A stretch of 64,000 nucleotides of DNA from a virus. The notes beneath the pieces are model-generated. The model saw nothing but the letters and a program-made list of their open reading frames with translations. It searched no databases and was not told the DNA's origin. Both the position numbers and the translations under genes were made by a program. Numbering within the stretch: the stretch's first letter is position 1; every line of letters starts with the position of its first letter. The DNA is taken from IMG/VR virus record IMGVR_UViG_3300029319_007985, positions 64,001 to 128,000 of that record. One strand, given 5' to 3'. Positions 1 through 64,000 of the stretch are shown piece by piece.

Positions 1-1
1 A

Positions 2-208
2 ATATTCATTATGGGACTTTTGACCATAACCATTATAAGTGTTGGTTCACTGCAGGTGATGGCTGGTAATCTAGACATAGGATTATTGATTGGTTCTAAC
101 ATATTGGCGGCACGAGCAGTGCAAGGCACAAGCAAGTATGCTAAAGGAGTTGATGCTTTACGACAGAGAGAAAAAGCAGTAAGGGAGATTAATGAAGTCA
201 TCAAGTAA
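2..208 (+). CDS. 3' end of T1SS ABC-transporter-like membrane domain protein (starts before window; no ATPase domain follows)
   Basis: GLLIGSNILAARAV resembles the last TM helix of PrtD/LapB-type exporters; frame open to window edge; next gene is HlyD-like. Confidence 0.55.
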   Translation: MFIMGLLTITIISVGSLQVMAGNLDIGLLIGSNILAARAVQGTSKYAKGVDALRQREKAVREINEVIK

Positions 209-890
209 ATTTTTTCTATTATTAAGTAGTTTAATTATTGGCCTGTTTGTATGGTGTTATTTGGCCAAAGTTGACATAACTTTCCAAGCACCAGGACATA
301 TCGAAACACAGAGCAATTCAACCACTATCGACACAATGGTGGATGGTCAGATAGAAAATGTATTAATAAGAGAAGGTGATATTGTTAAAGAAGGAGACAT
401 AGTGGTTGTGATTAATCCAGGAGTTGGCTACGAAAAATATAATGTTGTTGCAAATATAAATGGAAGGGTGCAGAGTCTTAACTATAAAAATCCAGGTGCA
501 GTTGTAGAAAAGGGCGAATCAATATTGACCATAGTGCCGGAAGATCAAAAAATGGTTGTTATGGGCAAACTGTCTGTATCTAATAGAGGTTACGTCAAAA
601 TAGGAAACATAGCCAAAGTAAAATTGGCAAACCAGGATCAAATAAGATTTGGACCGATCACAGGAATAATTTCAAACATATCACCAGATGTGGTGTACAC
701 CGACGCAGGAACCTATTACGCGATTGAAATTTTATTGGAATCACAACAATTTAGTAATGGTAAAGATAATTATTTGTTAGTACCAGGCATAATGGTGGAA
801 GTTTACATTTTAACCGGAGAGAGAACAGTAATGAGTTACATCACAAGTCCTTTCCATAATAGCCTTGGACAGGCATTACAGGAGAGATAA
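192..890 (+). CDS. Short HlyD-family membrane fusion protein
   Basis: N-terminal TM, lipoyl-like halves (VLIREGDIVKEGD, GAVVEKGESILTIVP), C-terminal PGIMVEVYILTGERTVMSYITSP. Confidence 0.8.
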   Translation: MKSSSKFFLLLSSLIIGLFVWCYLAKVDITFQAPGHIETQSNSTTIDTMVDGQIENVLIREGDIVKEGDIVVVINPGVGYEKYNVVANINGRVQSLNYKNPGAVVEKGESILTIVPEDQKMVVMGKLSVSNRGYVKIGNIAKVKLANQDQIRFGPITGIISNISPDVVYTDAGTYYAIEILLESQQFSNGKDNYLLVPGIMVEVYILTGERTVMSYITSPFHNSLGQALQER

Positions 891-1018
891 TGCTGACTTG
901 GTTTTTAGCAGGAATTTTTATTGGATTGTGTATAAGATGTATATGCACTCCACATAAGAATGAAGAAGAAAAATTTAAAGATCCATGGAACTGGACTTCA
1001 TTTGGCGGAGGAGGCTAA
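890..1018 (+). CDS. Small membrane protein, 42 aa (MLTWFLAGIFIGLC...)
   Basis: Read manually; TAATG overlaps with both neighbours. Confidence 0.6.
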   Translation: MLTWFLAGIFIGLCIRCICTPHKNEEEKFKDPWNWTSFGGGG

Positions 1019-1239
1019 TGGATAAGAAACTATCCTATAAACAAAGATTTAAAAAGGCTTGTAACACAGATAACGTGATAGATTTCAGTGTTGACGTTGG
1101 TTTAATTGCCTTTGACGTACTAGCCTCACCAATACTAATCGTAGTGAGAATAGCAAGATTCTATATTAGGAAATTTGTTAACAATTATCTCAAACGTTTT
1201 TTAAAATGGTTTGTGCATAAAGTTTTAAGAATAAAATGA
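1018..1239 (+). CDS. Hypothetical protein (start moved to 1018)
   Basis: GGAGG upstream and TAATG coupling; hydrophobic centre, basic C-terminus. Confidence 0.6.
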   Translation: MDKKLSYKQRFKKACNTDNVIDFSVDVGLIAFDVLASPILIVVRIARFYIRKFVNNYLKRFLKWFVHKVLRIK

Positions 1240-3074
1240 GTAAAAAATTAACAAGTGTCTGGATGGTGGTAGCACTATCCTTGATCTTATTTTCTGCTAG
1301 ATTATTTGATACAAGTCCTGTTGAAACTTTAAGGTTAAAAACATTTGACTACTATCAAAAGATATCACCCAGAGACGTAACTACAAACTCTGTAGTCATA
1401 GTCGAGATTACGGAGCAAGATCTTAAAAAATACGGCCAATGGCCATGGCCAAGAAATTTAATTGGAAACTTACACAACAGGATATATCAGCACGGGGCAA
1501 AAGTAATCCAATACAATATAATATTCGCTGAAAAAGATAGGGCCGGCAAGGATGAACTTTTTGCACAAAAATTAGCCGGCACTAACACCGTGATGATGTA
1601 TAGTATAAAAGATTCTGCCACAGACGGACAGGTGGCAAAGGTTCCTATTGTAAAACAAGGTGAGCCTGACAAATTTTTGTATAGTTTCAAAGGAGTGGTA
1701 ACAAACATATCGGAACTATTAAGATTCGCTAACGGTGCCGGAGTTAATATTATGGTGCCTAATATAGATGGTACCATTAGGCAGATCCCTTTATTTGTAA
1801 ACACAGACATAGGCACAATACCAAATCAAGTTCTAGACACAATAAGAGTTTACAATAAAAATAACAAATATAAAATTGTTGCAGATAACAACGGTGTTAC
1901 TGAAATACTTCTAAGTAGAAACAAAAAGATCTACACTGATTCTAACGCAATGTTCAATATAAATTTTGCAGAAGCAATAACCATCACAAAATACAGTGTA
2001 ACCGATATTATCAAAAACAAAATTAACCTAGAAAACAAAATTGTTGTAGTTGGGTTGAATGCCGCGGGATTGAGTTATTTAAAAGATACTCCTCTAGGAC
2101 TCATGACCGACACACAAATTAGTGCCCAGGCTATAGAAACTGATCTTACAGACAGCCAACTTATAAGAAATGGTAATACCAATCTAATAGAAATAATAGC
2201 AGTTTTTGTCATTGGATTTTTACTGATAGCCTTAGTGCCCAGGTTTAATATTACCAGCACTGTGCTCGCTTATTTGACGCTTTTAACCGGCATAATTTCG
2301 TCGAGTTTGGTCGCCTATAACGGTTACAATTATATGCTAGACGCATCTTTTCCGGTCTTGTTTATTACCATCATTTGGGGCCATTTGGTATTCAATAGTT
2401 TTGCCAAGCAGTATAGATTAAGGCAACAAATAAAGAAACAGTTTGAACATTATCTTGATCCACGCATGGTCAAAAAATTACAGAAGGATCCTGGGTTATT
2501 GAAGTTGGGTGGAGAGACAAAAACCATGACATTTATGTTTTCAGACATCCGAGGGTTCACTCCTATATCAGAAAAATACAAGGGCAATCCACAAGGACTC
2601 ACACGTTTGATCAATAGGTTTTTGACACGTATGACCAACATTATAATCAAAAACGGTGGCACAGTTGACAAGTACATGGGCGATTGCATAATGGCATTTT
2701 GGAATGCTCCGTTGGATACGCCCAGACATGAAACTTTAGCCATCAAAACTGCATTGCAAATGCAGAAAGAACTTAAAAAATTAAACAGAGAACTTAAAAA
2801 GGAAAAACTTCCTCAAATCAATATTGGCATAGGAATAAACACAGGAGAAGCATTAGTTGGCAACATGGGCAGTGATCAGCGTTTTGATTATTCTGTTATA
2901 GGTGATGATGTCAACTTAGCAAGTAGATTAGAAAGCAGTTCAAAGGAACTACAGACAACTTTGGTAATTGGTGAGAAAACACGTATAAAATGTAAAAAAA
3001 TTAAGTTTACTTCGCTGGGTTCAATCAAAGTAAAAGGAAAAACTGAAGACATCAAAGTGTACACGGTTAAATAA
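1236..3074 (+). CDS. CHASE2-domain class III adenylate/guanylate cyclase
   Basis: CHASE2 GQWPWPR, three TM helices, cyclase motifs FSDIRGFT, DKYMGDCIMAFW, YSVIGDDVNLASRLE. Confidence 0.92.
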   Translation: MSKKLTSVWMVVALSLILFSARLFDTSPVETLRLKTFDYYQKISPRDVTTNSVVIVEITEQDLKKYGQWPWPRNLIGNLHNRIYQHGAKVIQYNIIFAEKDRAGKDELFAQKLAGTNTVMMYSIKDSATDGQVAKVPIVKQGEPDKFLYSFKGVVTNISELLRFANGAGVNIMVPNIDGTIRQIPLFVNTDIGTIPNQVLDTIRVYNKNNKYKIVADNNGVTEILLSRNKKIYTDSNAMFNINFAEAITITKYSVTDIIKNKINLENKIVVVGLNAAGLSYLKDTPLGLMTDTQISAQAIETDLTDSQLIRNGNTNLIEIIAVFVIGFLLIALVPRFNITSTVLAYLTLLTGIISSSLVAYNGYNYMLDASFPVLFITIIWGHLVFNSFAKQYRLRQQIKKQFEHYLDPRMVKKLQKDPGLLKLGGETKTMTFMFSDIRGFTPISEKYKGNPQGLTRLINRFLTRMTNIIIKNGGTVDKYMGDCIMAFWNAPLDTPRHETLAIKTALQMQKELKKLNRELKKEKLPQINIGIGINTGEALVGNMGSDQRFDYSVIGDDVNLASRLESSSKELQTTLVIGEKTRIKCKKIKFTSLGSIKVKGKTEDIKVYTVK

Positions 3075-3081
3075 TATTACA

Positions 3082-3255
3082 ATGACAGGTTTAGAAGTAA
3101 TGACAATAGTATCAAAGGCATGGCCAATCTTCCTTGGCTTCATTCTTTTAATTGTAACTTTGGCGCAGGCCCACTACAGAATAAAGGTGCTTGAAGAAAA
3201 AGTTAAAGTTGCCTTTGACCTAATCAACAAATTGACAGACAAGTTTAGCAAATAA
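3082..3255 (+). CDS. Small membrane/coiled-coil protein, 57 aa
   Basis: Read manually (MTGLEVMTIVSKAWPIFLGFILL...); TAAATA 8 nt upstream. Confidence 0.65.
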   Translation: MTGLEVMTIVSKAWPIFLGFILLIVTLAQAHYRIKVLEEKVKVAFDLINKLTDKFSK

Positions 3256-3316
3256 ATTTTACTTTAATCAAGAAGTAGTCGCTTAACTTAGCCTCCTAAC
3301 AGGTTAAGTATTTTAG

Positions 3317-3583
3317 ATGAATTATTTTTTGGTAGTAATAATGTGTATAGGATTGGATTGCACAACAGCATGGAACCCAACTCCCTACGACTCGAAGTTC
3401 GAATGTGAAATAAGTGCCAAAGAAACAGTGCAATCACTTTCAACAACTTTTCCAGACAGTGACGGAGAAGTCTACTGTCTTACCAAAGAAGAATACAGCA
3501 CTTGGAAAAAGGCCATAGATGCTGGAGTTATACCAAGACTAAACAAACATAGACTCAACCAACCACTAGAACAATCTATCTAG
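3317..3583 (+). CDS. Hypothetical Cys-containing exported protein
   Basis: Hydrophobic N-terminus, 4 Cys; TAAGTA 6 nt upstream. Confidence 0.6.
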   Translation: MNYFLVVIMCIGLDCTTAWNPTPYDSKFECEISAKETVQSLSTTFPDSDGEVYCLTKEEYSTWKKAIDAGVIPRLNKHRLNQPLEQSI

Positions 3584-3586
3584 TAA

Positions 3587-3614
3587 TTGACAATTCTTTA
3601 AGATCTGTTATAAT
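3587..3614 (+). promoter_or_regulatory. Sigma70-type promoter, leaderless
   Basis: TTGACA-N16-TATAAT with TG extension; ATG follows after 6 nt. Confidence 0.8.
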
Positions 3615-3620
3615 TTAAGC

Positions 3621-3932: not shown

Positions 3933-4099
3933 CAAAATGTTGGGAATTTGATTTAGATCTTAAGACAAGAAAAATAAAAACATTCGTGTACAGTGACACA
4001 GGAACTGACATACAGGAAAGATTTACAAAAGGATATGAAGTGAGCAACATCAAAGAAATTGATGATCCGTTGTTAGAGAATAAAAAGGTCAAAAAATGA
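3929..4099 (+). CDS. Hypothetical protein, 56 aa
   Basis: Read manually (MTKCWEFDLDLK...); ATGA overlaps at both ends. Confidence 0.65.
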   Translation: MTKCWEFDLDLKTRKIKTFVYSDTGTDIQERFTKGYEVSNIKEIDDPLLENKKVKK

Positions 4100-7457: not shown

Positions 7458-7518
7458 AGAGGACTTTAAGACAATCATCCCTCTTTAAACATTCTGCTTG
7501 TCATCAAAGGAGAAAAAG
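7458..7518 (+). ncRNA. Candidate pseudoknotted riboswitch-like 5' leader of queD
   Basis: AGAGG(7458-62)/CCTCT(7480-84); GACAA(7470-74)/TTGTC(7498-7502); CTTT(7464-67)/AAAG(7506-09, in the SD); promoter TTGACA 7422 / TACACT 7446 directly upstream. Confidence 0.5.
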
Positions 7519-7962
7519 ATGGCATACTATTCAAGTAAAACATATGATCACAATGAAGGACTAAGTTGCGCTTTCAGGCAGTGGAAAGCAACACACAGTC
7601 ATTGCCGTTGGATTCATGGATACGCACTTGCAGTAAAGTTGACTTTCGGTTCCCACAAACTTGACGATAGAAATTGGGTGCAGGATTTTGGAGGCTTAAA
7701 AGACATCAAGTTATGGTTGAAACAAATGTTTGATCATACTTTATGTATTGCTGAAGATGATCCGGAACTGGACAAATTCAAAGAATTACATGCAAAAGAT
7801 TTATGTGACTTAAGAATTGTTCCTGCTGTAGGTTGCGAAAAATTTGCTGAACTGATCTACAATCACGTAAGTAAGATTGTAAACAACGACAGAATATGGT
7901 TAGAATCTGTCGAAGTCAAAGAGCACAGCGGCAATGGAGCAGTATTTAAAAGACAAAATTAA
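7519..7962 (+). CDS. queD: 6-carboxytetrahydropterin synthase
   Basis: HCRWIHGY, DFGGLK, FDHT, GCEKFAE, VKEH; AAGGAG SD places the start at 7519. Confidence 0.88.
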   Translation: MAYYSSKTYDHNEGLSCAFRQWKATHSHCRWIHGYALAVKLTFGSHKLDDRNWVQDFGGLKDIKLWLKQMFDHTLCIAEDDPELDKFKELHAKDLCDLRIVPAVGCEKFAELIYNHVSKIVNNDRIWLESVEVKEHSGNGAVFKRQN

Positions 7963-13536: not shown

Positions 13537-14376
13537 ATGGTCAAACCCGGCAAGCCTAAACCTGATCCAGCAGAAATACAAAGAATTAATAGAGAGACAA
13601 TAAAAGATACTTGTTTCGTGATAGGCAACGGAGAAAGTAGGAACATATTCAAAAATTTAGAAACGTTGAAACACAAGGGTACAATATATGGTTGCAACGC
13701 CATATACCGTGATTGGCCGGACCTGTGTGATAAAATATTTGCGGTCAATCCTCCCATGTATGAAGAAGTCCTAGAAGCCAAAAAAGCAAACAACTACAGT
13801 TTTGAATTGATAGGCAAAGATCAAACAAGCAAGTGGAATTATCTACTTGAAGAGGATAAAGTTAAAAAACAAAAGATGCCAAAAGGTCTACAACTTTATA
13901 GATACTGGATAGGTGGCAACAATAAAACTGGTGTTATGCGAACTTTGGATCTTTCGGAGGCAAAGGGAAGTGGTTGCTCCGCTGTGTTACATGCGGCCGA
14001 ACAAGGATATAAACACATTTTTTGTATAGCATTTGACATGTTAGGCGCTGAACAATATAGAAAGCCTTACACTTTGCAATCAAGAGAACAAAACAATATC
14101 TATAAAAATACTCCTAATTACCCTACAAGAATGAACATGAAGGCCTATCTCAAGTATGAATGGATGTTTCAACTTACCCAGATAGCAAGAAAATTTACTA
14201 ATTCAAACATTTACATGATTAATCGAAAAGAATATTTGAAAGGCAATAATTTACTTCCACACTATATGAAACATAGTAAAAATAATTTTTATGGCGCCCA
14301 TTATGCCGAACTTAAAAAATTTATAGAAGATCCAAGAGACCCAAGAGGATTTTTTAAATTTTCACTAAGACCTTAG
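13537..14376 (+). CDS. IGNGESR-motif protein, second paralog
   Basis: VIGNGESR, YGCNAIYRD, AFD, NNIYKN. Confidence 0.55.
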   Translation: MVKPGKPKPDPAEIQRINRETIKDTCFVIGNGESRNIFKNLETLKHKGTIYGCNAIYRDWPDLCDKIFAVNPPMYEEVLEAKKANNYSFELIGKDQTSKWNYLLEEDKVKKQKMPKGLQLYRYWIGGNNKTGVMRTLDLSEAKGSGCSAVLHAAEQGYKHIFCIAFDMLGAEQYRKPYTLQSREQNNIYKNTPNYPTRMNMKAYLKYEWMFQLTQIARKFTNSNIYMINRKEYLKGNNLLPHYMKHSKNNFYGAHYAELKKFIEDPRDPRGFFKFSLRP

Positions 14377-16311: not shown

Positions 16312-19300
16312 ATGACACAGCAACAAATCATAAATGTAGGTGTGACCGAAAACGATGGAACTGGTGACAGTATCCAGGCGGCGGGTAGCAAGATAAACCA
16401 CAATTTTAGCCAACTCTACACTGATAACAACATTGACGGAAACATACTATGGCAGGGTAACAAAATCACTAGTAACCTGTCTAATTCAGATATTGTGCTG
16501 ACAGCATCTGGTACAGGAAAAATTCAATTGGCCGGCATTAAGATAGGCGGCACATCAATGAGCAGTGATGACAGCACCACTATCAACATAAACGAAAATT
16601 TACAGGTTGATGGCTCTGTTACTGCGACCACATTGGTTGGTGGTGGCTCTGGATTGACAGGAGCATCAATTACTAACGTTGGAGATCTTAGTGCAACTGG
16701 GTCAACACTTATATCTCCATCCAATGCAGACTTAACTTTTTCAACTGCTGGCACAGGAAGGATGATACTTGGTGATTTTATTATATTGGATGATAATAAC
16801 TTTACAGGCTCAAGAACCAATGATGACATCAACATCACTCCAAATGGTACAGGCTGTATAAATTTTCCAGCAATACAAATAAAGGCCAATAATATCAACG
16901 GCTTGCGATCAAACGATGACATAGTTATTACGCCAGCAGGCACAGGATCAATTGTGTTGCCTGCAATCACCATCAATGACAACAACATAGAAGGCAAAAG
17001 AAGTAACGATGACATAAATCTATTTGCCAGCATCAGTGGTGCTGTAAATGTCACAGATATAACAATAGATTCAAGTTTACGTCTAGCAGACAATAATATC
17101 ACAGCATTGAATACAAATTCAGATATCAACATAAATCCATCAGGCACAGGACTGATACAAATCAGCAAGATTGATGTCGATGATGGTACCATAGATGGAA
17201 CAACAGTTGGGGCGACTATTCCTGCCGCCGGAACATTTTCTACCCTTAGTGCCACAACGTTTCAAACAACGGGTCTAACAATAACCGACAACAAAATAGT
17301 AGCGAACACGTCAAACTCTGATTTAGTTTTGACTGGCAGTGGTTCTGGTGGTGTGCTATTAAATGGATTTTCTTTACCTGCTAGTGATGGCAGTTCAGGA
17401 CAAATACTACGAACGGATGGCAGTAAGACATTGAGTTTTGCCACTTCTCCTTTGATACTTGGTGTGACAACTTTTGCGGACACAACTCAAGACATAAGTT
17501 TTAGATCGACCTCAACTATAGATGTTAACACTGCCATTATTGCACATGAAATTGTGCCTAATTCTTCTACGCCATTAGATAAATTTACTTCCACACAGTT
17601 TGACAGTGTGTGGTATCATGCAGTCACCAAAGATCAAACAAATAACAGGTTTGGAGTTGCAAAATACTCATTAGCCAGAGGAACAATCAATGACGGAAGC
17701 ACAATCGATTCGGTGGTATCACAATCAAACCTAGTAAGAACTACAACGCACAATCATATCACAGTTGACACACAAATAAATGGTACATTTACTCAGTTGG
17801 ATGGCACTGGACCATCGGCAGAAAACGCATTTAAGGCCTACAGAATTGGCTTGGGTGACAGTGACTCCAGCACCAGTTCAGGTAACGTGGCCACAATTGT
17901 TAATGCTGATGTTGACAGTGCAAGTGAATCTCTGGACTCATGGGCGTATGCCAGTTACCGTGGCGCCAAATATTACATCAGTGCAGAAAACAGCGACACT
18001 GGAGAAGTCAGCAACATTGAGGCATTGGTGGTTCACAATGGAAGTGATGCTTTCATAAACTCTTACAATGTTGTAAACACAGGCAACAACGATCTACTGT
18101 CTTTGACAGCGGCCATAAGCGGAAGCAATGTGGTTTTGAGCGGAGCGGCTTTGACTCCAAACACAAAAGTACGTATGTATAGAATACTTTTGTCTGACAA
18201 CGAGACTTCCAGCACAGGAGACAATGTGAGTCTAATTGGAAATAAAACAGTAGCGGCCAGCACTGAGACAGTAATAGATCATGTGACCAGTACCGGCACA
18301 TCTGTTGGAAATGCGGCGGCCACAAAAACCGTAAACAGTTTTACAGTTGGAGAATATGATAGTGCTCTTTATTTTGTTGTAACCAAAGACAACGTAAACT
18401 CAGGCTTTGAAACAGGTAAAATAAGTTTGATGCACAATTTAAATGATGCTTTTCTAACACATTCTAGCATAGTAAGAACAGATCCTACAGATGTTCATCC
18501 TACTTTTGATGCAGACATTGTCAGTGCAGGGGACAGCACCAGCACTGTGAGATTAAGAATGACAGATGGTGATGGATCAACTGTTACGCCTGCAAACAGC
18601 ATGGCATTTTACAGAATAGGTTTGGGTGACAGTGATTCCACAGGGTACGTCGGTGAAATAACTTTGGTCAATGATATCACGGTTACAAACATCATAGATA
18701 GTTCAACCGCTACACTGGACGCATTTACGCACGGCTCACACGTTGGAGCAAAATATTTTATCTCGGTTAATAATCAATCCACAGGCGAAGTTGGAAACAT
18801 TGAAGCATTGGTCACTCATGACGGAACCAACGCATACATCACTACATACAACGAATCTTTTTCAGGCAACAACAGCCTTATCAGTCTGTCGGCGGTCATT
18901 AGTGGTACTTCTGTTATATTAAGAGGTTCTGCCACTGCAGGTGGTAGCACCAAAGTAATAGTCAACAGAGTAGTAGCATTTGGTGATTCAGAATCAAATG
19001 AAGCAAACTCAGATAGCACAAGAAAGATAATAGGTAATGTAATTGTTTCTAGCAGTGCAACGACCTTTGATAGTTTTTCGAGCGATGATGTTGATGCGGC
19101 CCATTACGTGATTACTGGTCAAAAAGGTTCCGATGAAAATTTCATTTGTGAGGCGATGGTTGTGACAGATGGGTCCAATGTGTTTGTGTCACAAGGTCCA
19201 AATGTCAGTACCAAGGAAAATGACATGTTGGAAATCACTGCAACAATTTCAGGCGGAACTGTAAGTGTTAAAGCAAGTTCTACTTCTGGTGCATCAACTG

Positions 19301-29042: not shown

Positions 29043-29489
29043 ATGGGACAAATAGAAGATTTACAAAATAAAGGTTTTGGCAGTCACGGTGGAAGACAGT
29101 ACACCGTTGAATATGATATTACTCCATTAAAGAAACGTGTTTTGGTAACAAACATGAAATTTGGAGAGATCAAAACTGCCGGGGGAATAATTATACCTGA
29201 CGATGACGGTACCGAATCTGGCATACACCCGCGTTGGGCAGAAGTGTACGCAGTAGGTAGCAAACAGGAAGACGTCAAAGTAGGGCAATGGATATTGGTG
29301 GCTCACGGCAGATGGAGTAGATCTTTCAAAGTTAAAAAGAATGGAAAAGAATTTGAAGTGAGAATGATTGATGAAAATGACATTTTATTAGTTTCTGACG
29401 AAAGACCCGCTGACGAAACATCTAAAAAAGCAGGTTACGTAAACACTGGCGGTATGCAACAAATGACAAGTTTACCGGGAAATGATTAA
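29043..29489 (+). CDS. groES: Co-chaperonin GroES-like
   Basis: [30 protein letters not shown]. Confidence 0.82.
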
Positions 29490-30748
29490 TGGAAGAAGAA
29501 AAAAAATATAAACCAGTAAACACAAACAAAGTGGCGGAGAACACTTCGCCGTTCAAAGGTGTGTTAGGTTGGCTAGATAACAGACTGCCAGTATTCAGGA
29601 TGTTCAAGCACGAATACTTGGACTTCCAAGTACCAAAAACTTTGACATACTTTTGGAGTTTTGGAGCAATATTGACATTTTGTTTATTAGGTCTAATTAT
29701 AACAGGCCTAATATTAGGAATGCATTATAAACCATCTACGGCAGAAGCATTTGACAGTGTTGAAAAAATTATGCGTGATGTCAACTACGGTTGGCTGATA
29801 AGGTACATGCATATGAACCTGGCGTCCTTTTTCTTTATTGCAGTCTATATACACATGTTCCGCGGATTATATTTTGGTTCTTACAAATCACCTCGAGAAC
29901 TTATGTGGATCTTAGGATTAATAATTTATTTCTTAATGGTGGCAACTGCATTTTTAGGATACACTTTGCCATGGGGGCAAATGAGTTTTTGGGGAGCAAC
30001 TGTTATAACAAGTTTATTTGGAGCAATACCTTATATTGGTGAAACTATAACACATTGGTTATGGGGCGCCTACGCAGTTGACGATCCAACATTAAACAGG
30101 TTTTATGTATTGCACTGGCTTATAGCATTTCTAATTGTGGGTGTTGTGTTGTTTCATGTTATTGCACTACACATGACCGGATCAAACAATCCAACAGGAG
30201 TTGAACCAAAAGACACTAGAGATACTGTAAGTTTTCATCCTTATGTCACAACAAAGGATTTATTTGCATTTTTAGTTTTTATTGTAATATTCGCGGCATT
30301 TTTATTTTTCATGCCTAACTATCTTGGACACCCTGACAACTATATAAAAGCCAATCCGTTAGTGACACCTGCACATATTGTACCTGAGTGGTATTTTTTA
30401 CCTTGGTACGCAGTGCTAAGAGCGATACCTGACAAACTAGGCGGAGTAATTGCAATGGTGTCAGCGATCGGCGTAATAGGTTTACTGCCATGGCTAGACA
30501 CTAGTAAGATAAGAAGTTCTATATATAGACCAGTCTGGAAACAGTTTGTTTGGATTTTGGTTGCGGACTTCTTCCTTCTAATGTACTGCGGTGCTATGCC
30601 GGCGGAACAACCATTTGTTCTTTTGAGTCAAATAGGTACAGCATATTGGTTCTTATTTTTCTTAGTAATTGCACCGGTTGTGGGTTGGACCGAGAAACCT
30701 ACACCTCCCCCTGCGGCTATTCACTTATACAAAAAATCTAAAAAATGA
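29489..30748 (+). CDS. petB: Cytochrome b of the bc1 complex, full length
   Basis: Two His pairs 14 residues apart (YMHMN/YIHMF, LHWL/LFHV), [18 protein letters not shown]. Confidence 0.96.
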
Positions 30749-38576: not shown

Positions 38577-39428
38577 ATGAAAGACTATTATAAAATTCTT
38601 GGGGTATCCGAGGATGCATCTGCGGATGAAATAAAAAAAGCATTTAGGAAACTGGCCGTAAAGCATCACCCTGACCGAGGTGGAAATGAATTAAAATTTA
38701 AAGAGGCCAACGAAGCATACGATACCCTTAAAAACAAAAGTAAAAGACAAGAATACGATACACTGAGAAAGTATGGTAGTAACTTTGGCGGACAAGGTTC
38801 TGGTTTCCGATTCACATCAGGAAACTTTGATGAATTTTTTGGAGGTGATTTCTTTGAAGAATTTATGAGTGGCATGGGTGGAATGGGACGTAGACCTAAT
38901 TACAGGGCAAGGCCAAGAAACAATAAAGATGTTTCAATAAGGATTAATCTTAGTATTAAAGAAGTGATGCAAAGTGTTAAAAGAACAATAAGTGTAAAAC
39001 TGCCTAGTGGTCGAGATGAGATAGTAGATGTGAAGATAGGAGCAGGAGTGCAAAGTGGAGTTGTGTTCAAATATGCTGGACTGGGTGATGACACTGATAA
39101 AAATTTGCCAAGAGGAAATTTATTGATCCGAGTAACAGTGTTAGATTCTGATGGCTTTACACGAAAAGGAAATGATTTATGGACGGACAAAAGGATAGAT
39201 GCTTTTCAGGCCATGAGAGGTTGTGAATTTACTATACGTGATTTACAGGACAATGTTGTAAAGGTACATGTGCCTGCTGGTACTCAACCAGGAAGTGTTT
39301 TACAATTAAAAAGCAAAGGAATGCCGGTCCATGAGACTTTGTCGATACGTGGTAACATGTATATCAAAATACATGTCACTATACCTAAACTTAATGAATC
39401 AGAATTAAATAAAATAAAAGACTTATGA
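38577..39428 (+). CDS. dnaJ: Class B DnaJ (CbpA-like, no zinc finger)
   Basis: [13 protein letters not shown] region, C-terminal domain. Confidence 0.9.
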
Positions 39429-40039
39429 AAACTCCAGTAAACTTTTCAGATAAAGTGGCATATAGAATTACAATGTTCTTAAGGTGGACAGCAGACACCT
39501 TTTTCAAGAAGAGGTATGGACACAGAGCAGTTGTATTAGAGACCATTGCTGGTGTGCCTGGTATGGTCGCAGGTATGTGGAATCATTTAAGAAGTTTACG
39601 TAAAATGAAGCCAGATGACCGAGGGTGGATCAAAACTTTATTAGCAGAAGCAGAAAATGAACGTATGCATCTAATGATTTTTATTAGAATTGCAAAACCT
39701 AATTGGTTTGAACGTTGGATGATTATCACAGCGCAATTTATTTTCTGGCACTTCTATATGTTCTTATACATATTTTTTCCGCAATGCGCCCATAGGATGG
39801 TAGGTTATTTTGAAGAACAAGCCTGTATAAGTTACACAGAATATCTTAAAGAAATAGATGAAGGTAGGACAGAAAATATAAAGGCACCCAAAATTGCTAT
39901 TGATTATTACAACCTAAGTCAAGATGCAACATTACGTGATGTTGTCATAGCAGTACGAAAGGATGAAGAAGGACACAGAGATGTAAATCACGACATGGCA
40001 GATCAAATAAGAAGGAATAGGCACGGACTTATACATTAA
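39425..40039 (+). CDS. aox: Alternative oxidase (ubiquinol oxidase)
   Basis: [35 protein letters not shown] di-iron ligands. Confidence 0.93.
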
Positions 40040-48805: not shown

Positions 48806-49497
48806 AAATTAAAGAGTTCATAATCATGCCATCTAGCATAGACACACTTGGCCTTGTCCACAAGCCAGGCCGTGGTCCAAACAACAGATTCGATTTCAAA
48901 AACAAAGCAAATAATAGAGCAAACGAAGTAGGTGAAACCAAGGAAGCACCACCAGGCACATATTTTACTAAAACAGGCAACTTAGTTAAAGGAAGATTGA
49001 CCAAGGCCGCGAAAGAAAGAGGAGCAAGAGAAACTGATCCAAAAGATGATCAAAGATCTAAAGTGCCGCCAGTCACACAAAGGAATGAAGCGAGAGGTAC
49101 CTGCTGGCATGGATATCAACAAAAAGGTTATAAGAAAAAAGGCAACAAAATGGTTCCTAATTGTGTTAAGGAAGAGGCCGCTGGTGTTGGCATAGTAACA
49201 AAACAAAACGCCACAAAAGACGTGCCTGTAGGTGGCGAATACATGAACGTAAAAAAATTAGGCCTAGGTAAAGGCAAGCCAAAAACAATAGGCGAAGAAT
49301 GGAAACAGTTCCAAGAAAATTTTGCCGACAAAAAAGTCAAAGGTAAAAGTAGGCCTGGGCGGGTCAAAAGGGCAGGAGCAAGTTGTAAAGGCTCAGTTAC
49401 AAGTTTAAGAGCAAAGGCAAAAAAATCAAGTGGTGAAAGAAGAAAGATGTATCACTGGTGTGCCAACATGAAATCCGGTAGGAAAAAATCCAGATAA
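48802..49497 (+). CDS. Putative polyprotein of basic modules
   Basis: MKIKEFI; modules separated by TKE|A, RNE|A, VKE|E, FQE|N. Confidence 0.6.
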   Translation: MKIKEFIIMPSSIDTLGLVHKPGRGPNNRFDFKNKANNRANEVGETKEAPPGTYFTKTGNLVKGRLTKAAKERGARETDPKDDQRSKVPPVTQRNEARGTCWHGYQQKGYKKKGNKMVPNCVKEEAAGVGIVTKQNATKDVPVGGEYMNVKKLGLGKGKPKTIGEEWKQFQENFADKKVKGKSRPGRVKRAGASCKGSVTSLRAKAKKSSGERRKMYHWCANMKSGRKKSR

Positions 49498-50256: not shown

Positions 50257-50497
50257 AGAACAGGCCACTGCCGGCGCCACTTCTGCTGGCAATATTGCAT
50301 CTGTAGTCAGTCCACATATCGCAATAGGACCTGATAGGTTCAAGAAATCATATACAGGCACGCCTGGAAAATCAGGCACTAAGGCACCAAAGTTGCCTAA
50401 GATTGTTCAACCAAAAAAGAAAGATGGCACGGCAAAAGGCGCACATAATTTACCAGGAGTAAGTTTGTTTGGCGGGCCAGGATTTGTGAGAAGATGA
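50231..50497 (+). CDS. Putative internal head protein (start moved to 50231)
   Basis: MRICEIIIRE|QATAGATSAGNIA; TAAATA at 50217. Confidence 0.6.
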   Translation: MRICEIIIREQATAGATSAGNIASVVSPHIAIGPDRFKKSYTGTPGKSGTKAPKLPKIVQPKKKDGTAKGAHNLPGVSLFGGPGFVRR

Positions 50498-56656: not shown

Positions 56657-56937
56657 TGTATAATTTACTCAAAGAATTTTGGGTAAACAGTTATAACACA
56701 GATAAGACAGCATTTTATCTTGAGATTATATCTGTGGCATTTACCATTGCAGGATCAGTGATATTGACTTTCACTTCTCCTTATCCTATAATGGAGTATG
56801 TGTTTCCTGTCTATCTGGTAGGATCTTGCACACTGGCCATTGCATGTTGGAGAAGAAGAATAATTTGGACACTGGTTTTGGCAAGTTGGTTTACTATAAT
56901 GAATGTGATTGGAAACATTAAAGTATTTTTATTATGA
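56656..56937 (+). CDS. Three-TM membrane protein
   Basis: Hydrophobic, coupled ORF. Confidence 0.6.
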   Translation: MYNLLKEFWVNSYNTDKTAFYLEIISVAFTIAGSVILTFTSPYPIMEYVFPVYLVGSCTLAIACWRRRIIWTLVLASWFTIMNVIGNIKVFLL

Positions 56938-59594
56938 GTTATATAGATGCATTCTATAAAAGAGATGAGGACAAAGTCCGTGTAGTTGAAAGAGACTCCA
57001 AAGGACAAAGAAAGTTTGTAGACTACGACGCAAGATATACATTTTACTATCCTGACAGCAGAGGAAAACACAGAAGTATATTTGGAGAACAACTGCAAAA
57101 AGTACAATGCTCCACTTTCAAGCAATTTATAAAAGAACAAAAAATAAGATCAAATAAAAAATTATACGAACAAGATATAAATCCAGTCTTTAGGTGCCTG
57201 GAAGAAAATTATCTCGGTAAGGAAACTCCAAAATTAAATGTTGTATTTTTCGATATTGAAGTTGACTTCGACCCACAGCGTGGATATTCTACTACAGATG
57301 ATCCATTTATGCCAATAACAGCAATAACTTGTTATCTAAGTTGGAGCGATCAATTAGTAACACTTGCGGTTCCGCCAAAGACACTAAACATGTCAGGAGC
57401 AAAAATGGCGACAGAACGTTTTGAAAACGTCATGTTGTTTGAAAAAGAAGCGGACATGTTAGACGCATTTTTAACACTGATAGATGATGCGGACATTTTG
57501 AGTGGATGGAACTCGGAAGGTTATGATATTCCATACACTGTTGGTAGGATACAAAAAACATTGAGTAGCGACGACACAAGAAGACTATGCTTCTGGGGTG
57601 AAAAGCCAAAGCGTAGGACATTTGAGAAATATGGCAGAGAGCAACTAAGTTATGACCTGATAGGAAGAGTGCATTTGGATCTGCTAGAACTTTACAGAAA
57701 ATACACATATGAAGAAAGACATTCGTACAGACTAGATGCAATAGGTGAACACGAACTTGGCGAAAAAAAGACAGTGTATGAAGGATCTTTGGACAACCTA
57801 TATAATAATGACTTTGGTTTGTTTATAGAATACAATAGACAAGACTGTGCTCTACTTGCCAAACTGGAAAAAAAATTAAAATTTATTGAACTTGCAAACG
57901 AAATAGCACACCAAAATACCGTGTTATTACAGACTACGATGGGGGCAGTCGCAGTGACTGAACAAGCAATCGTGAATGAAGCACACAGAAGAGGCATGAT
58001 TGTGCCTGGAAGAGTCAAACGTGCCGAAGGAGAATCTGTCACGGCGGCTGGTGCATACGTGGCCACGCCCAAGAAAGGTTTACATAATTGGATAGGTAGT
58101 TGCGATATCAACAGTCTATATCCAAGTGTAATTAGAGCATTGAACATGGGACCAGAATCAATTGTTGGACAGATACGCCCTGTTATCACGTCTGCGGAAA
58201 TAAATCGTGCAAGGCACCAGAAAAAGTCATTTGCGGCGGCTTGGGATAATCAATTTGGCACTTGGGAATATCAAGCAGTAATGAAACAAGATAAAGGCAC
58301 TGAAATAATAGTTGACTGGGAAGATGGCACAAGTGTGAAAATGAGTGCAGGGCAACTACACGAACTTGTGTTTGAGAGTAATAATCAATGGATGTTGAGT
58401 GCAAACGGAACTATTTTCACGTATGAATTTGAAGCAATCATCCCTGGACTACTTAAAAGATGGTATGCTGAAAGAAAAGAAATGCAACGTAAGATGCATG
58501 AGTGCGGTGATAATGAAATAGAAAAAGAGTTTTGGGACAAAAGGCAACTAGTCAAAAAAATTAATTTAAACAGTTTGTATGGAGCAATCTTAAATCCAGG
58601 TTGCAGATTCTTCGACATAAGGATTGGACAGTCAGTAACACTAACTGGTAGATGTATCACAAAACACATGGGCGCAAAAGTAAATGAAGTAATAACTGGC
58701 GACTATGATCATAAAGGTGATTCAGTAATTTACGGCGACACAGATTCAGTTTACTTTAGTGCTTACAAACCGCTACAGAATGAAATAACGTCTGGAAAAG
58801 TGCCATGGCAAAAAGAAAACATAATAAATTTATATGATAAAATTGCTGACGAAGTCAATAACTCCTTTACACAATACATGACCAAAGCATTTCACTGTCC
58901 AAAAACTAGAGGCGAGGTAATAAAAGCAGGACGTGAATTAGTTGCTAGTAAAGGATTGTTTATTACAAAGAAAAGATATGCAGTGTTGTACTTCGACAAG
59001 GAGGGAGAACGTCAAGATATAGCCGGCTCGCCAGGAAAAATGAAGGCAATGGGACTTGATCTTAAAAGATCTGACACTCCTGTTTTTGTACAAAACTTTC
59101 TAAGTGAGTTGTTGATGATGGTTTTGACTAACAAAACTGAAGAAGAAGTCCTAAAAAGAATATCTGAATTTAGGTCAGAGTTCAAAGCAAGGCCAGGTTG
59201 GGAAAAAGGATCACCAAAAAGAGCAAACAACGTTACAGAATATCTTGCAAAAGAAACTAAACAAGGGAGAGCCAACATGCCAGGGCACGTAAGAGCAAGT
59301 ATAAACTGGAATAGATGTAGAGAAATGTACAGCGACAAATATTCTCTTCCTATAACGGATGGAGCAAAAGTGATTGTGTGTAAATTGAAAAACAATCCAT
59401 TAGGCTACACTTCAATAGCCTATCCAGTTGACGAGATGAGAATACCCGACTGGTTCAAAGAAATGCCATTTGATGCTGAAGCAATGGAATCTACAATACT
59501 AGATCAAAAAATAGACAATCTTATCGGGGTGCTTAATTGGGACGTACAAAGCACAGAGACCACAAACACATTCAACAAACTATTCCAATTTTAA
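56934..59594 (+). CDS. Family B DNA polymerase
   Basis: FDIEV, YNRQD, DINSLYPS, KINLNSLYG, YGDTDS, KKRY; no intein. Confidence 0.96.
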   Translation: MSYIDAFYKRDEDKVRVVERDSKGQRKFVDYDARYTFYYPDSRGKHRSIFGEQLQKVQCSTFKQFIKEQKIRSNKKLYEQDINPVFRCLEENYLGKETPKLNVVFFDIEVDFDPQRGYSTTDDPFMPITAITCYLSWSDQLVTLAVPPKTLNMSGAKMATERFENVMLFEKEADMLDAFLTLIDDADILSGWNSEGYDIPYTVGRIQKTLSSDDTRRLCFWGEKPKRRTFEKYGREQLSYDLIGRVHLDLLELYRKYTYEERHSYRLDAIGEHELGEKKTVYEGSLDNLYNNDFGLFIEYNRQDCALLAKLEKKLKFIELANEIAHQNTVLLQTTMGAVAVTEQAIVNEAHRRGMIVPGRVKRAEGESVTAAGAYVATPKKGLHNWIGSCDINSLYPSVIRALNMGPESIVGQIRPVITSAEINRARHQKKSFAAAWDNQFGTWEYQAVMKQDKGTEIIVDWEDGTSVKMSAGQLHELVFESNNQWMLSANGTIFTYEFEAIIPGLLKRWYAERKEMQRKMHECGDNEIEKEFWDKRQLVKKINLNSLYGAILNPGCRFFDIRIGQSVTLTGRCITKHMGAKVNEVITGDYDHKGDSVIYGDTDSVYFSAYKPLQNEITSGKVPWQKENIINLYDKIADEVNNSFTQYMTKAFHCPKTRGEVIKAGRELVASKGLFITKKRYAVLYFDKEGERQDIAGSPGKMKAMGLDLKRSDTPVFVQNFLSELLMMVLTNKTEEEVLKRISEFRSEFKARPGWEKGSPKRANNVTEYLAKETKQGRANMPGHVRASINWNRCREMYSDKYSLPITDGAKVIVCKLKNNPLGYTSIAYPVDEMRIPDWFKEMPFDAEAMESTILDQKIDNLIGVLNWDVQSTETTNTFNKLFQF

Positions 59595-59601
59595 ATACAA
59601 G

Positions 59602-60429: not shown

Positions 60430-60475
60430 TTTAACAGTTGATTCTGATCTAAATATTTTATATAATAATTGTATT

Positions 60476-61213
60476 ATGATAGATATCTTGAAAGACATTG
60501 TCAAGCACACGCATGGACTTGGATTCCTCGATCTTGTTAAAATTACTGGTACCAGTGATTCAACTGCTATTGATTCAATGGCAGAGGACAGATCAGTTAT
60601 CCTGCAAGGATCTTTTCACAAACCACAATCAGGTATGATAGGAACTTTTGGTATGCCTCAGTTGAATAAACTAGATATACATTTAAAATGTCCGGAATAC
60701 AAAGATAAGGCAAACATATCCGTAATGACTGGAACCAGAAATGGTGCAGAAACACCAACAGGTATACACTTTGAAAATGAAAAAGGTGATTTCAAGAATG
60801 ATTATAGATTTATGAATGCCGAGATTATTAACGAAAAACTTAAAACTGTAAAATTTAAAGGTGTTAAGTGGGACGTTGAGATCGAGCCTACAGTGGCAAG
60901 TGTACAAAGATTCAACTTTCAATCAGTAGCAAACACAGAACACAATTCTTTTGTTGTAAGAACAGAGGATGGTAACCTGATATTCACTTTTGGTGATCAA
61001 TCATCACATGGTGGTGAATTTGTATTTGCAAAAGACGTGAAAGGAACTCTTAATAAAGGATGGAGTTGGCCGGTAGCACAGGTATTACAGATATTGAAAC
61101 TTTCTGATTCTGCAAAAGTAACACTACATTTTTCCAATGAAGGAGCAATGCAGGTTACAGTAGACTCAGGACTAGGCAAATATCAGTATATTATTCCAGC
61201 GCAGGCGCAGTAA
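60476..61213 (+). CDS. Sliding clamp-like protein
   Basis: 245 aa, next to polB, C-terminal GAMQVTVDSGLGKYQYIIPA; promoter TTGATT-N17-TATAAT. Confidence 0.6.
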   Translation: MIDILKDIVKHTHGLGFLDLVKITGTSDSTAIDSMAEDRSVILQGSFHKPQSGMIGTFGMPQLNKLDIHLKCPEYKDKANISVMTGTRNGAETPTGIHFENEKGDFKNDYRFMNAEIINEKLKTVKFKGVKWDVEIEPTVASVQRFNFQSVANTEHNSFVVRTEDGNLIFTFGDQSSHGGEFVFAKDVKGTLNKGWSWPVAQVLQILKLSDSAKVTLHFSNEGAMQVTVDSGLGKYQYIIPAQAQ

Positions 61214-62655
61214 TGACAGATAAAAGGCAAGAACATTTAGGAGAGTACAGCAGAGACTTTGCGGTGTTCTTGCCTGCTATTTCAAACTTTTACAATACTT
61301 TCATTAGCAAACAAAGGGTTACTGAGGGCACCCACATACCAGCAGAAAGAATACCAAAAGGATTGGACAGAGGAGTCGAAGGATTAAACTTTATCAATCC
61401 TGAACAAGGATATTTCACATATCCAACAGCATTATATTCGGCAGGACACGCCTGTTTAGATATGGATAAAACAGCAGACAGAGATTCAATGTGTGTCAAT
61501 CGAGACAGAAAGTTTTCAACGATTATTGGTGACTCAGGTGGATATCAGATAGGAAAAGGTGTTATTAAATTTGATTGGAAAGATTTTGAAGGAAATAAAG
61601 CAAACAAAGTAAGGTCAGATATTTTAAATTGGTTGGAACTTACAAGCGATTGGGCAATGACCTTAGACGTGCCAACTTGGGCGGCAGACGATTTGAATTC
61701 ACCAAAAACAGGACTAAAAAGTTTTCAAGATACATTGGACGGCACAATTTACAATAATAAGTTTTTCCAAAAAAATAGACTAGGACAGACCAAGTTATTA
61801 AACGTGTTACAAGGTGATGATTGGGAAACAGCACAAATTTGGTATGACAAAGTAAAAGATTTTGAATTTGAAGGTTGGGCAATGGGCGGAATCAACATGT
61901 GTGACATGGAGGTTATGTTAAAAAGGCTAATCATAATGAGAGATGAAAAGAAACTGGATGGTAAAGACTGGATGCACGTACTAGGCACGTCACAACTTGA
62001 TTGGGCATGTTTCTTAACACAGGTACAAAGACAGGTTCGAAAGAATATCAATGACAAATTTACTATTAGTTTTGATAGTGCGTCAGCATTTTTATCAACC
62101 GCAAATGGACTTGTGTACACGCACAACTTGTTTACTCCAAAAAGATGGAGTTACATAATGGAGAAGGCACCAGATGACAAGAGACTAAAAGGATCAACTA
62201 TTCCGTTTCCTTTCAAGTCAGCAATAGGAGAAAGACTAATACTTGGAGATGTTTGTGCTTATGGTGAAGGGGATCTAAACAAAAACAATAAAGAGGGCAA
62301 AACAAGTTGGGATAGTTTTAGTTACTGCTTGATGATGGCCCATAATGTTTACAACCATATAAGAGCGGTGCAAATTGCAAATGACTTGAATGACATTGAG
62401 ATGATCAAACATAAACCACAGGTAAAACACTGGAGAAAGACTAAGGATTCGGACAACACAGATGAACCAAGTGACTTTGTTCCACGAAATATTTTATATT
62501 TCAACACACTTGTGGAAGAAGTGTTCACAAGTGAAAAGCCAATGGATGTAATAAACAATGCCAGTAGTTTCCTTGCTGACATACGTGGCACTAGATGGGC
62601 AAGGGCCACAGGCGGTGGAAAAGGCAAAAACAACTTTAGCAGTCTATTCGAATAG
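61213..62655 (+). CDS. TGT-fold transglycosylase (DpdA-like)
   Basis: DSGGYQ, LDVP, VLQG, AMGG, HVLG, SFDS, HN. Confidence 0.8.
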   Translation: MTDKRQEHLGEYSRDFAVFLPAISNFYNTFISKQRVTEGTHIPAERIPKGLDRGVEGLNFINPEQGYFTYPTALYSAGHACLDMDKTADRDSMCVNRDRKFSTIIGDSGGYQIGKGVIKFDWKDFEGNKANKVRSDILNWLELTSDWAMTLDVPTWAADDLNSPKTGLKSFQDTLDGTIYNNKFFQKNRLGQTKLLNVLQGDDWETAQIWYDKVKDFEFEGWAMGGINMCDMEVMLKRLIIMRDEKKLDGKDWMHVLGTSQLDWACFLTQVQRQVRKNINDKFTISFDSASAFLSTANGLVYTHNLFTPKRWSYIMEKAPDDKRLKGSTIPFPFKSAIGERLILGDVCAYGEGDLNKNNKEGKTSWDSFSYCLMMAHNVYNHIRAVQIANDLNDIEMIKHKPQVKHWRKTKDSDNTDEPSDFVPRNILYFNTLVEEVFTSEKPMDVINNASSFLADIRGTRWARATGGGKGKNNFSSLFE

Positions 62656-62664
62656 GAGGATAAA

Positions 62665-62877
62665 ATGGTAAAAGTTAAAAACAAGAAACTAAAAAAATTA
62701 TTGTATGAAAAGAATTGGTTAGATAAAAAAGTTGCCGAACTAACCAAAGATCGGAAAAAAGATAGAAGTTGGGACGCCAAAGCAACTTTGGTAAGATTAA
62801 AAAAACAAAAACTGAGATTGAAGGAAGAAATAACAAGACTAGCAAACAAATTGGGCAGTTTAACAAAACTAAAGTAA
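62665..62877 (+). CDS. Basic coiled-coil protein (DUF465-like)
   Basis: LKKQKLRLKEEI; GGAGG SD. Confidence 0.55.
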   Translation: MVKVKNKKLKKLLYEKNWLDKKVAELTKDRKKDRSWDAKATLVRLKKQKLRLKEEITRLANKLGSLTKLK

Positions 62878-62878
62878 A

Positions 62879-62906
62879 TTGACAAAATGTTTTTCTATGT
62901 TATAAT
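62879..62906 (+). promoter_or_regulatory. Sigma70-type promoter, leaderless
   Basis: TTGACA-N16-TATAAT with TG extension; ATG follows after 6 nt. Confidence 0.82.
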
Positions 62907-62912
62907 AGGCTT

Positions 62913-63458
62913 ATGTTAAGAGATTATTCTACAGGCTTCAAAGAAGATGTGAATGTTTTTTCAGGTATTGAAATAGAACACACTCCGGCATATGGTAAAC
63001 AAACACTTTTCCTTGCACGTAACGATCTTACTTTTGATCAAATACAAAGTTTGGCCGTGGCCGCTGATGCAGAAGCAATATACTATGGAGCAAATAGGTC
63101 CTATATGCACAGTCACGCGATGCAGTTGGCTCAAATACATCAATTGTTAGACAGAGGATACTGGGTAACTGTTGATTACCCATTTGAATTACATCAATTG
63201 GTTGCCAAGAAGTTTAGCACGTGCTGGAGAAAGGAAAGATTTATTCCATTCTGCTCTATCATATTTCCACACACAGAAGAAGATGACAATTTGTGTTTCA
63301 AAGTAGACGATGTAGATTTTAACAAAACAAATCCTGGTGTTTGGAGCATGACTATGAAAGATTTCAAAGACAAAGCAGGATTTACTAAATGGGAAGAATA
63401 CAAACAAGATGAACCAATAACAGAGGACAAAATATGGCCAGCACCACAGAAAGCGTAA
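62913..63458 (+). CDS. Hypothetical phage protein
   Basis: EIEHTPAYGKQTLF, KVDDVDFNKTNPGVW. Confidence 0.65.
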   Translation: MLRDYSTGFKEDVNVFSGIEIEHTPAYGKQTLFLARNDLTFDQIQSLAVAADAEAIYYGANRSYMHSHAMQLAQIHQLLDRGYWVTVDYPFELHQLVAKKFSTCWRKERFIPFCSIIFPHTEEDDNLCFKVDDVDFNKTNPGVWSMTMKDFKDKAGFTKWEEYKQDEPITEDKIWPAPQKA

Positions 63459-63898
63459 TTGATCAGATGTATAACATACCTGAGCAACAACAAGAACAAG
63501 CATTGAAAGAAAAAGCCGGAAAGGCGGCAAAAATGATATGGGTGACCTTTCAAAAAGAAGGTATGCACAAATACCCTGCGGCACTAGATGATCCAAAATT
63601 AAAGACAGGAGATGAGTACGATGTTAGTTTCTTAGGATATCCACACAGACACATATTTCATTTCAAAGTGGCAATAGAAGTATTCCACGATGACAGAGAC
63701 ATTGAATTTATACAGTTTAAAAGATGGCTCCTTAATTTGTACAAGGACGGCACTATACAAAGCGACTTTAAAAGTTGTGAAATGATGAGTGATGACCTAT
63801 ACATTGCAATCACAAAAAAATATCCAGGTAGACGCATAGAAATAGATGTATCAGAAGATGGTGAAAACGGATCACACGCAGTATATGAAAGAACTTAA
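63434..63898 (+). CDS. QueD-like T-fold protein (second type)
   Basis: EGMH, HRHIFH, DIEF, SCEM, VSEDGENG. Confidence 0.6.
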   Translation: MASTTESVIDQMYNIPEQQQEQALKEKAGKAAKMIWVTFQKEGMHKYPAALDDPKLKTGDEYDVSFLGYPHRHIFHFKVAIEVFHDDRDIEFIQFKRWLLNLYKDGTIQSDFKSCEMMSDDLYIAITKKYPGRRIEIDVSEDGENGSHAVYERT

Positions 63899-64000
63899 GA
63901 TAAAAGAAAAGAGAGCAACTACTAGGAAAGGATATCTACCGATAGGTGGTGGTGGACTAAATGCCAGTTACACATTTGTAGATGCAGTAGCCAACGTATG
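63885..64000 (+). CDS. Partial CDS running off the window
   Basis: MKELKIKEKRATTRKGYLPIGGGG... Confidence 0.5.
   Translation, partial: MKELKIKEKRATTRKGYLPIGGGGLNASYTFVDAVANV

Follow-up and report, generated by a model that had tools for sequence, protein, structure and literature searches.

Erasure of AGCT and other GC-centered words from a marine T4-like jumbo phage lineage, with surviving sites that suggest a guanine modification at GA and GGC

We examined a 64-kb window of phage DNA, positions 64001-128000 of the 172,389-bp linear IMG/VR record IMGVR_UViG_3300029319_007985, for short words that are missing from it. Both strands of the window are free of AGCT, and the absence extends over the whole record together with that of GCWGC (GCAGC/GCTGC) and AGCCC/GGGCT. 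This is restriction-site avoidance, a phenomenon long known in lytic phages, and the purge runs through synonymous positions and non-coding DNA alike. In relatives of this phage, loss of several of the words depends on the flanking base, and the sites that escape carry a G that precedes A or GC. We favor, with a probability of about 0.62, the reading that host nucleases purge those sites left unprotected by a guanine modification specific for GA/GGC. The candidate for the modifying enzyme is a divergent protein with a predicted tRNA-guanine transglycosylase (TGT) fold, resembling DpdA and encoded in the window.

An initial annotation, made by eye, had reported the absence of AGCT, and full counts bear it out. 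AGCT occurs 0 times in the window, against 192.2 ± 13.0 in 100 dinucleotide-preserving shuffles, none of which came near zero. Mononucleotide composition predicts 209 sites, in line with the roughly 200 that the annotation had estimated, and a Markov model predicts 91.5. For each of the remaining fifteen palindromic 4-mers, the count is 0.56 to 1.27 times the Markov expectation, and the six listed as present are all there (GATC 261, GGCC 145, CCGG 76, TCGA 109, GTAC 153, CTAG 153). Over the whole record, AGCT is the sole absent 4-mer (Markov expectation, 261), and the only minimal absent 5-mers are GCWGC and AGCCC/GGGCT; GATC, by comparison, stands at 672 vs 493 expected. The annotation had rightly named GCWGC beside AGCT, and it missed AGCCC/GGGCT and the nearly absent GCDHGC. 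As a set, the purged words are closed under reverse complement, and they are short words typical of Type II sites.

We then scored the record against a synonymous null, in which codon shuffles among 226 open reading frames (ORFs; 96% of the record) held proteins and codon usage fixed. Against this null, AGCT was found 0 times vs 403 ± 15, GCWGC 0 vs 176 ± 9, AGCCC/GGGCT 0 vs 98 ± 9, and GCWWGC 6 vs 67. Codon choice follows the same lines. No GCT codon comes after an A-ending codon (0/590), though 36.7% of codons end in A; no AGC codon stands ahead of a T-starting codon (0/422); and no CTN codon follows NAG (0/2133). All 196 Ala-Ala pairs open with GCC or GCG, while GCA and GCT together make up two thirds of Ala codons, and GCSGC is enriched 2.4-fold (227 vs 94) as the Ala-Ala replacement. 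The non-coding DNA of the record also lacks AGCT, with 0 vs 20 expected.

To follow the purge across related phages, we used the T4-type DNA polymerase of the window as a marker. A search of IMG/VR with it gave 313 related loci, of which the best 80 (81-96% identical) were kept and reduced to 59 non-redundant lineages, 869 kb in total, from marine viromes. Of these 59 lineages, 54 lack GCWGC, and the polymerase tree shows 2 changes in this state. AGCT is far more variable: it is at zero in 20 lineages, strongly or partially depleted in others and normal in 9, and the state "AGCT below 0.1 of expectation" requires at least 9 changes on the same tree. Loss of AGCCC/GGGCT tracks loss of AGCT across lineages (Spearman 0.82). 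Three long relatives were taken in full, G001 (139 kb), G002 (91 kb), and G004 (62 kb). In these, in that order, GCWGC is at 0 against 127, 86, and 45 expected, and AGCT at 13 vs 207, 34 vs 149, and 22 vs 97. The AGCT survivors of partly purged contigs are dispersed and not clustered, which led us to reject mosaicism as the origin of the partly purged states. The graded, patchy state of AGCT fits strain-variable host restriction-modification (R-M).

The same comparisons bear on the possibility that no cleavage selection is involved at all, and that a mutational process such as deamination, a codon or dinucleotide bias, or a sequencing or assembly artifact produced the absences. AGCT and GCWGC do hold cytosines that can be methylated at C5, and in other systems AGCT is known as a hotspot for deaminases. 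Zero of ~400 sites is, however, far past mutational depletion; the dinucleotide, Markov, and synonymous nulls all fail to account for it; and the non-coding DNA is motif-free too. Close relatives carry near-normal AGCT (14/14 expected in lineage L028, 15/20 in L010), and the same purge recurs in independent metagenomic assemblies, so an assembly artifact is not the source. Between them, the nulls and the relatives effectively refute a mutational or artifactual origin, to which we give next to no credence.

We next divided the words by flanking base, scoring each class as observed/expected under the synonymous-shuffle null, either in single relatives or pooled over four long genomes. AGCT lacking a G flank (HAGCTD) is nearly gone, at 0/216 in G001, 3/148 in G002, and 1/90 in G004 (pooled three, 4/454). 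One G flank raises survival to 3/85, 27/70, and 20/42 (50/197), and GAGCTC stands at 8/8.1, 3/7.6, and 1/3.7 (12/19). For the asymmetric word, HAGCCC/GGGCTD is found at 2/63, 18/52, and 10/30, and GAGCCC/GGGCTC at 10/12, 14/12, and 6/6.8. Surviving AGCT in the relatives is thus nearly always GAGCT/AGCTC, just as surviving GCNNGC is nearly always GGC..GCC. Pooled over the four genomes, GCGC shows a gradient of 20/196 (HGCGCD), 115/197 (one outer G), and 27/35 (GGCGCC). GC-NN-GC with the spacers AA, TT, AT, TA, AC, or GT runs from 0/143 unflanked through 6/71 with one flank to 16/14 for GGC..GCC. Spacers that form an inner GGC/GCC are tolerated (359/315), a GA/TC spacer gives 23/33, and a GT/AC spacer is depleted (3/36.5); wider GC-N-GC spacings, N3 to N6, are not depleted. 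For GCWGC, no flank rescues the site (0/315, 0/175, and 0/20 by flank class). By these flank and spacer counts, a site is rescued by a G that stands before A or before GC, and not by a G before T or C.

No such gradient was seen for TGCA, GTAC, CATG, ACGT, or CCGG in the four pooled genomes. In bacterial controls, 207 kb of SAR11 coding sequence and 282 kb of other alphaproteobacterial coding sequence, every flank class lay at ~1.0, and bias of the null model was therefore rejected as the source of the classes. The initial annotation had read AGCT as an AluI-type site, which is one reading among others: an RGCY-type enzyme would leave a like footprint once GGC is shielded. A model with a single RGCY-reading agent was not adopted; it predicts the depletion seen at GGGCCC, but not that GAGCCC is tolerated while GAGCTD is purged, as in G001.

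The flank rule could have another cause. The enzymes might be indifferent to G-flanked sites, another shield at G-G and G-A such as a cytosine modification might be at work, or the phages might carry a GRGCYC-like methyltransferase. The sites left in G001 nearly coincide with the GRGCYC hexamers GAGCTC, GAGCCC, and GGGCTC, and the cultured phage HTVC008M, in which we detected no member of the TGT family of the DpdA-like protein, still has a mild outer-G gradient at GCGC (11/26, 38/31, and 8/2.2). We nevertheless regard a cause of this kind as quite improbable. One rule fits three unrelated cores and their spacers, with GA and GG(C) tolerated and GT and GC not, and it coincides with the measured specificity of DpdA from phage CAjan. 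A GRGCYC-like methyltransferase would leave the one-sided GAGCTD survivors (27/70 in G002, 20/42 in G004) unexplained; GGGCCC is itself purged (1/18), and no methyltransferase was found in the ~47%-complete record.

The putative shield has a candidate enzyme in the window, 480 amino acids long. The protein has no sequence match in Pfam (including TGT), PHROG, or PDB. Its family comprises 971 clusters at 50% identity, with >7000 close homologs in marine metagenomes, and is thus an abundant enzyme family unrecognized by the Pfam and PHROGs libraries searched. A D107-S108-G-G110...Q motif and D288 are invariant in an alignment of 54 diverse homologs, in keeping with the two catalytic aspartates of such enzymes, one in the DSGG motif and the other the nucleophile, and the family profile finds only TGT in the PDB, over the DSGGYQ region and weakly (E 0.8). 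An AlphaFold2 model of the protein reached a predicted local distance difference test score (pLDDT) of 92.3 and a predicted template modeling score (pTM) of 0.92. All of the top 50 Foldseek hits were tRNA-guanine transglycosylases (E ~6e-8, with template modeling scores of ~0.5 normalized to target length). On this modeled structure, we confidently assign the protein to the tRNA-guanine transglycosylase fold. Its assignment as DpdA is that of a candidate, fold-based and not activity-based, a point that also speaks for some other cause of the flank rule. Synteny downstream of the DNA polymerase holds for the gene in most of those relatives that have sufficient sequence, one of them a non-avoiding lineage. 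A QueD/PTPS-like gene, for a step of 7-deazaguanine synthesis, is also present in the window, and FolE lies just outside it (PF01227, E 5e-49). The initial annotation had supposed a deazaguanine modification; its genes are here in part, and the modified base itself stays putative. We see an even chance that the survivor pattern amounts to a readout, from sequence only, of guanine modification at GA and HGGC by this divergent TGT-fold enzyme.

Under the reading that we favor, sequence-specific DNA-cutting defenses of the host would impose strong, continuing selection on the phage lineage. They would read short GC-centered words, namely AGCT (AluI- or RGCY-like) and GCWGC (TseI- or GCNGC-like), and further GCNNGC (Cac8I-like), GCGC, and the asymmetric AGCCC. 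With FolE/QueD-type enzymes supplying it, the DpdA-like transglycosylase would swap G for a 7-deazaguanine derivative at 5′-GA and 5′-GGC, and the modified G would shield any site containing or abutting it. Sites that could not be shielded in this way would be removed through synonymous recoding. We infer here the nature of the agents (host R-M enzymes), the kind of base (a deazaguanine), and its position (GA/GGC).

In the genome of the window itself, the rule is still seen for GCDHGC. Unflanked sites in the record number 0/48 and doubly flanked ones 5/4.1, and a G directly precedes the site in 4/4 survivors of the window. Lineages at zero AGCT likewise tolerate GCGAGC/GCTCGC (8/11.3). The purge of AGCT is total regardless of flank (GAGCTC 0 vs 7.7, one-flank sites 0 vs 107), and that of AGCCC is complete as well, with GAGCCC at 0 vs 14 expected. 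As both purges are complete in all contexts, including GAGCT, the enzyme concerned would not be stopped there by the flanking modification. The shield thus apparently exists in this genome, yet the AGCT-directed agent does not seem to be halted by a flanking modified G. The initial annotation had taken the lost words for a fingerprint of host defenses that the modification fails to block. That idea agrees with the relatives, which spare GA/GGC-shielded sites, and it does not carry over unchanged to this genome, which purges AGCT in GA context too.

Several observations weigh against the reading of host nucleases and a GA/GGC shield. The genome of the window is, as just described, purged of AGCT even at the proposed shield position, and shows the shield only for GCDHGC. 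GGGC appears unshielded in the marine clade, which is not reported for CAjan: GGGCCC is at 1/18, and a G precedes only 3/77 of the protective GGC. The biosynthetic pathway is incomplete as recovered, with QueE represented only by a generic radical-SAM/SPASM match and QueC not found in the record, which is ~47% complete. The correlation between AGCT and AGCCC is not significant phylogenetically; only 4 supported independent pairs are available, and it is suggestive only. Avoidance of GCWGC is near-universal over lineages of 31-48% GC, unusual for strain-variable R-M. Marine metaepigenomes place AGCT methylation in Thaumarchaeota and GCWGC methylation in Chloroflexi, and Alphaproteobacteria, to which the host probably belongs, show only GANTC/GAWTC, an absence qualified by the poor detection of 5-methylcytosine in single-molecule real-time sequencing; no host R-M gene or methylome could be matched to the purged words. 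Finally, SAR11 loci do not avoid the words (AGCT 897 vs 627). Their GCWGC is ~5-fold over mononucleotide expectation (480 vs 88) but matches the synonymous null (439 vs 425), and the excess is therefore a codon effect and not a signal.

Part of this evidence suits the main rival, in which nucleases encoded by the phage shred host DNA at GC-N0-2-GC, and perhaps at AGCT, and the phage is safe by lacking unshielded sites. It applies chiefly to the clade-wide package of GCGC, GCWGC, and GCNNGC (as GCDHGC), which behaves as one character with 2 changes on the tree and is wholly absent from the basal non-avoiding clade. GCWGC is at zero in ~830 kb whatever its flanks, candidate hosts such as SAR11 are rich in the words, with GCWGC ~5-fold over mononucleotide expectation, and only ~47% of the genome is in hand. 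We still judge a phage nuclease unlikely. Graded AGCT states such as those of G002 and G004 would be suicidal with a resident nuclease, and each repeated gain would need a prior purge. No methyltransferase or restriction endonuclease was recognizable in the 172 kb, itself ~47% of a genome (no match to the C5, N4/N6, or Dam-type methyltransferase profiles PF00145, PF01555, or PF02086, and none by PADLOC among 154 ORFs). The only nuclease match from PADLOC in those ORFs was Cas4-like (E 7e-5), and the RE_AlwI profile PF09491 had no match.

The features of the window are collected below (Table 1). CheckV put completeness at ~47% for the 172-kb record and at 39% for the 139-kb relative, values that indicate a genome of ~355-365 kb in a marine jumbo T4-like clade that lacks close relatives in culture. 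The nearest GenBank phages by polymerase are jumbo phages with at most 49% identity, and megablast of a 9.5-kb stretch against GenBank phages gave no match.

Table 1. Positions of the features discussed, in window coordinates
Feature	Position	Strand	Evidence or context
Window without AGCT, GCWGC (GCAGC/GCTGC), and AGCCC/GGGCT	1..64000	both	Word counts; same over the 172-kb record
QueD/PTPS-like gene (6-carboxytetrahydropterin synthase family)	7498..7962	+	PF01242 (record 71555-71953), E 1.2e-17, above curated cut-off
Surviving GCDHGC site, GCAAGC	13550..13555	.	GGCAAGCC
Surviving GCDHGC site, GCTTGC	16901..16906	.	GGCTTGC
Host-like cytochrome b, bc1 type, full-length	29489..30748	+	Pfam Cytochrome_B and Cytochrom_B_C
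Host-like alternative oxidase (AOX)	39425..40039	+	Pfam AOX, E 7.5e-82
Surviving GCDHGC site, GCAAGC	49274..49279	.	GGCAAGCC
Surviving GCDHGC site, GCACGC	50358..50363	.	GGCACGCC
T4-type DNA polymerase	56934..59594	+	phrog_262, E 1e-195; marker for collecting relatives
DpdA-like TGT-fold protein, candidate DNA-guanine transglycosylase	61213..62655	+	Predicted fold, family motif

Host-like genes in the window encode cytochrome b, AOX, DnaJ, and a ClpB-like ATPase. Cytochrome b and AOX had been proposed as long resident in the phage on account of their freedom from AGCT, and the claim stands for the first. Cytochrome b holds none of the three purged motifs against 5.6 expected under phage codon usage (P = 0.0015), while all 80 of 80 bacterial homologs carry at least one and most at least four. 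It is alphaproteobacterial, with 55-64% identity to Stappiaceae, Pelagibacteraceae, SAR116, and others, and in a tree the phage copy sits on a long branch outside Pelagibacterales. Being motif-free and on a long branch, it can reasonably be given a long residence in the phage. AOX is motif-free against 1.8 expected (P(0) = 0.135) and, being too short a gene, cannot be judged alone. Its best bacterial matches, at 63-67% identity, lie in ~1.2-Mb alphaproteobacterial genomes, and a search of the five alphaproteobacterial genomes from which the cytochrome b loci came did not find it. Since both genes are of alphaproteobacterial type, the host is probably a marine alphaproteobacterium.

Some further features stand apart from the purge. 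PADLOC, run on the 154 ORFs, also reported a Pycsar-type cyclase-like protein (E 2e-28) and five to seven viperin-like radical-SAM paralogs. TAAATA/TATTTA is strongly under-represented in the record (92 vs 197, Markov) and, pooled, stands at 126 vs 441 under the synonymous null; G001, G002, and G004 also show its depletion, and TAAGTA and TAACTA are depleted like it. These words are probably late-promoter-like and excluded from the bodies of genes. Across the clade GTGCAC (ApaLI-type) is depleted (15/50, 22/68, and 1/14), and the G004 lineage also depletes CTTA/TAAG (263 vs 439), TGCA, and CATG.

Site avoidance as such is textbook knowledge; what is new here is its flank-conditional form, the match of that form to GA/GGC, and the divergent TGT-fold enzyme. 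The completeness is also unusual, with three words erased from at least 172 kb, and the clade offers a natural experiment with >50 lineages in differing purge states. The match between the flank rule and measured DpdA specificity joins base modification and recoding, as two layers of counter-defense, in a single quantitative picture. From it follow a predicted modification motif for an uncultured and, by the number of close enzyme homologs in metagenomes, very abundant phage group and a list of host nuclease specificities relevant in the surface ocean. If the favored reading is true, avoidance footprints could map the target motifs of hypermodification, and the defenses against which they fail, in uncultured viromes and without chemistry.

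Restriction-site avoidance in lytic double-stranded DNA phages is exemplified by the GATC-free Staphylococcus phage K and the site-poor T7. The marine clade resembles these in that a Type II-like word is wholly lost, recoding is synonymous, and loss varies among relatives; it differs in that several GC-centered words are purged together and that the purge in the clade depends on the flanking base. Type II specificities of this kind include AluI (AGCT), Fnu4HI (GCNGC), Cac8I (GCNNGC), HhaI (GCGC), and CviJI (RGCY), and TseI, with which ApeKI agrees, reads GCWGC. The purged words equal the recognition sites of these enzymes minus the subset that contains GGC or GA. For AGCCC/GGGCT, a literature search found no matching enzyme and no methylation or restriction motif.

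Among cultured phages, we compared HTVC008M of Pelagibacter (SAR11), a marine T4-like myophage that also has host-like envelope and cyclase genes. AGCT is depleted in it (142/424), as is AGCCC (4/33), and CGCG (0/33), ACGT (104/324), and GGCC are depleted as well. In contrast to the marine clade, HTVC008M shows avoidance of sites that contain GA (TCGA 2/213, GATC 82/336) but not of GCWGC, and follows no G-flank rule at AGCT (118/327, 24/92, and 0/4.5). Its profile fits the expectation that sites with GA endanger only those phages that lack the shield.

The closest parallel lies in the DpdA enzymes of phages and their 7-deazaguanine DNA modifications (PMC6884629). DpdA of phage iggy acts at GA only (PMC10484667), and that of CAjan inserts preQ0 at the G of GA and GGC, such that EcoRV and HaeIII sites containing GA or GGC resist digestion while GC, GT, and GGT sites are cut (PMC7544227). 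The marine protein differs from both in having no Pfam TGT or PHROG match, in its length of 480 amino acids, in its jumbo T4-like family, and in that no QueC was found beside it. It is like them in its TGT fold, in its DSGG(Y)Q motif, and in that the same phage has FolE and QueD genes. With CAjan the likeness extends to the sites themselves: G in a GC or GT context is unprotected in the marine clade, as in the CAjan digests, and it is precisely GA and GGC that the purge spares.

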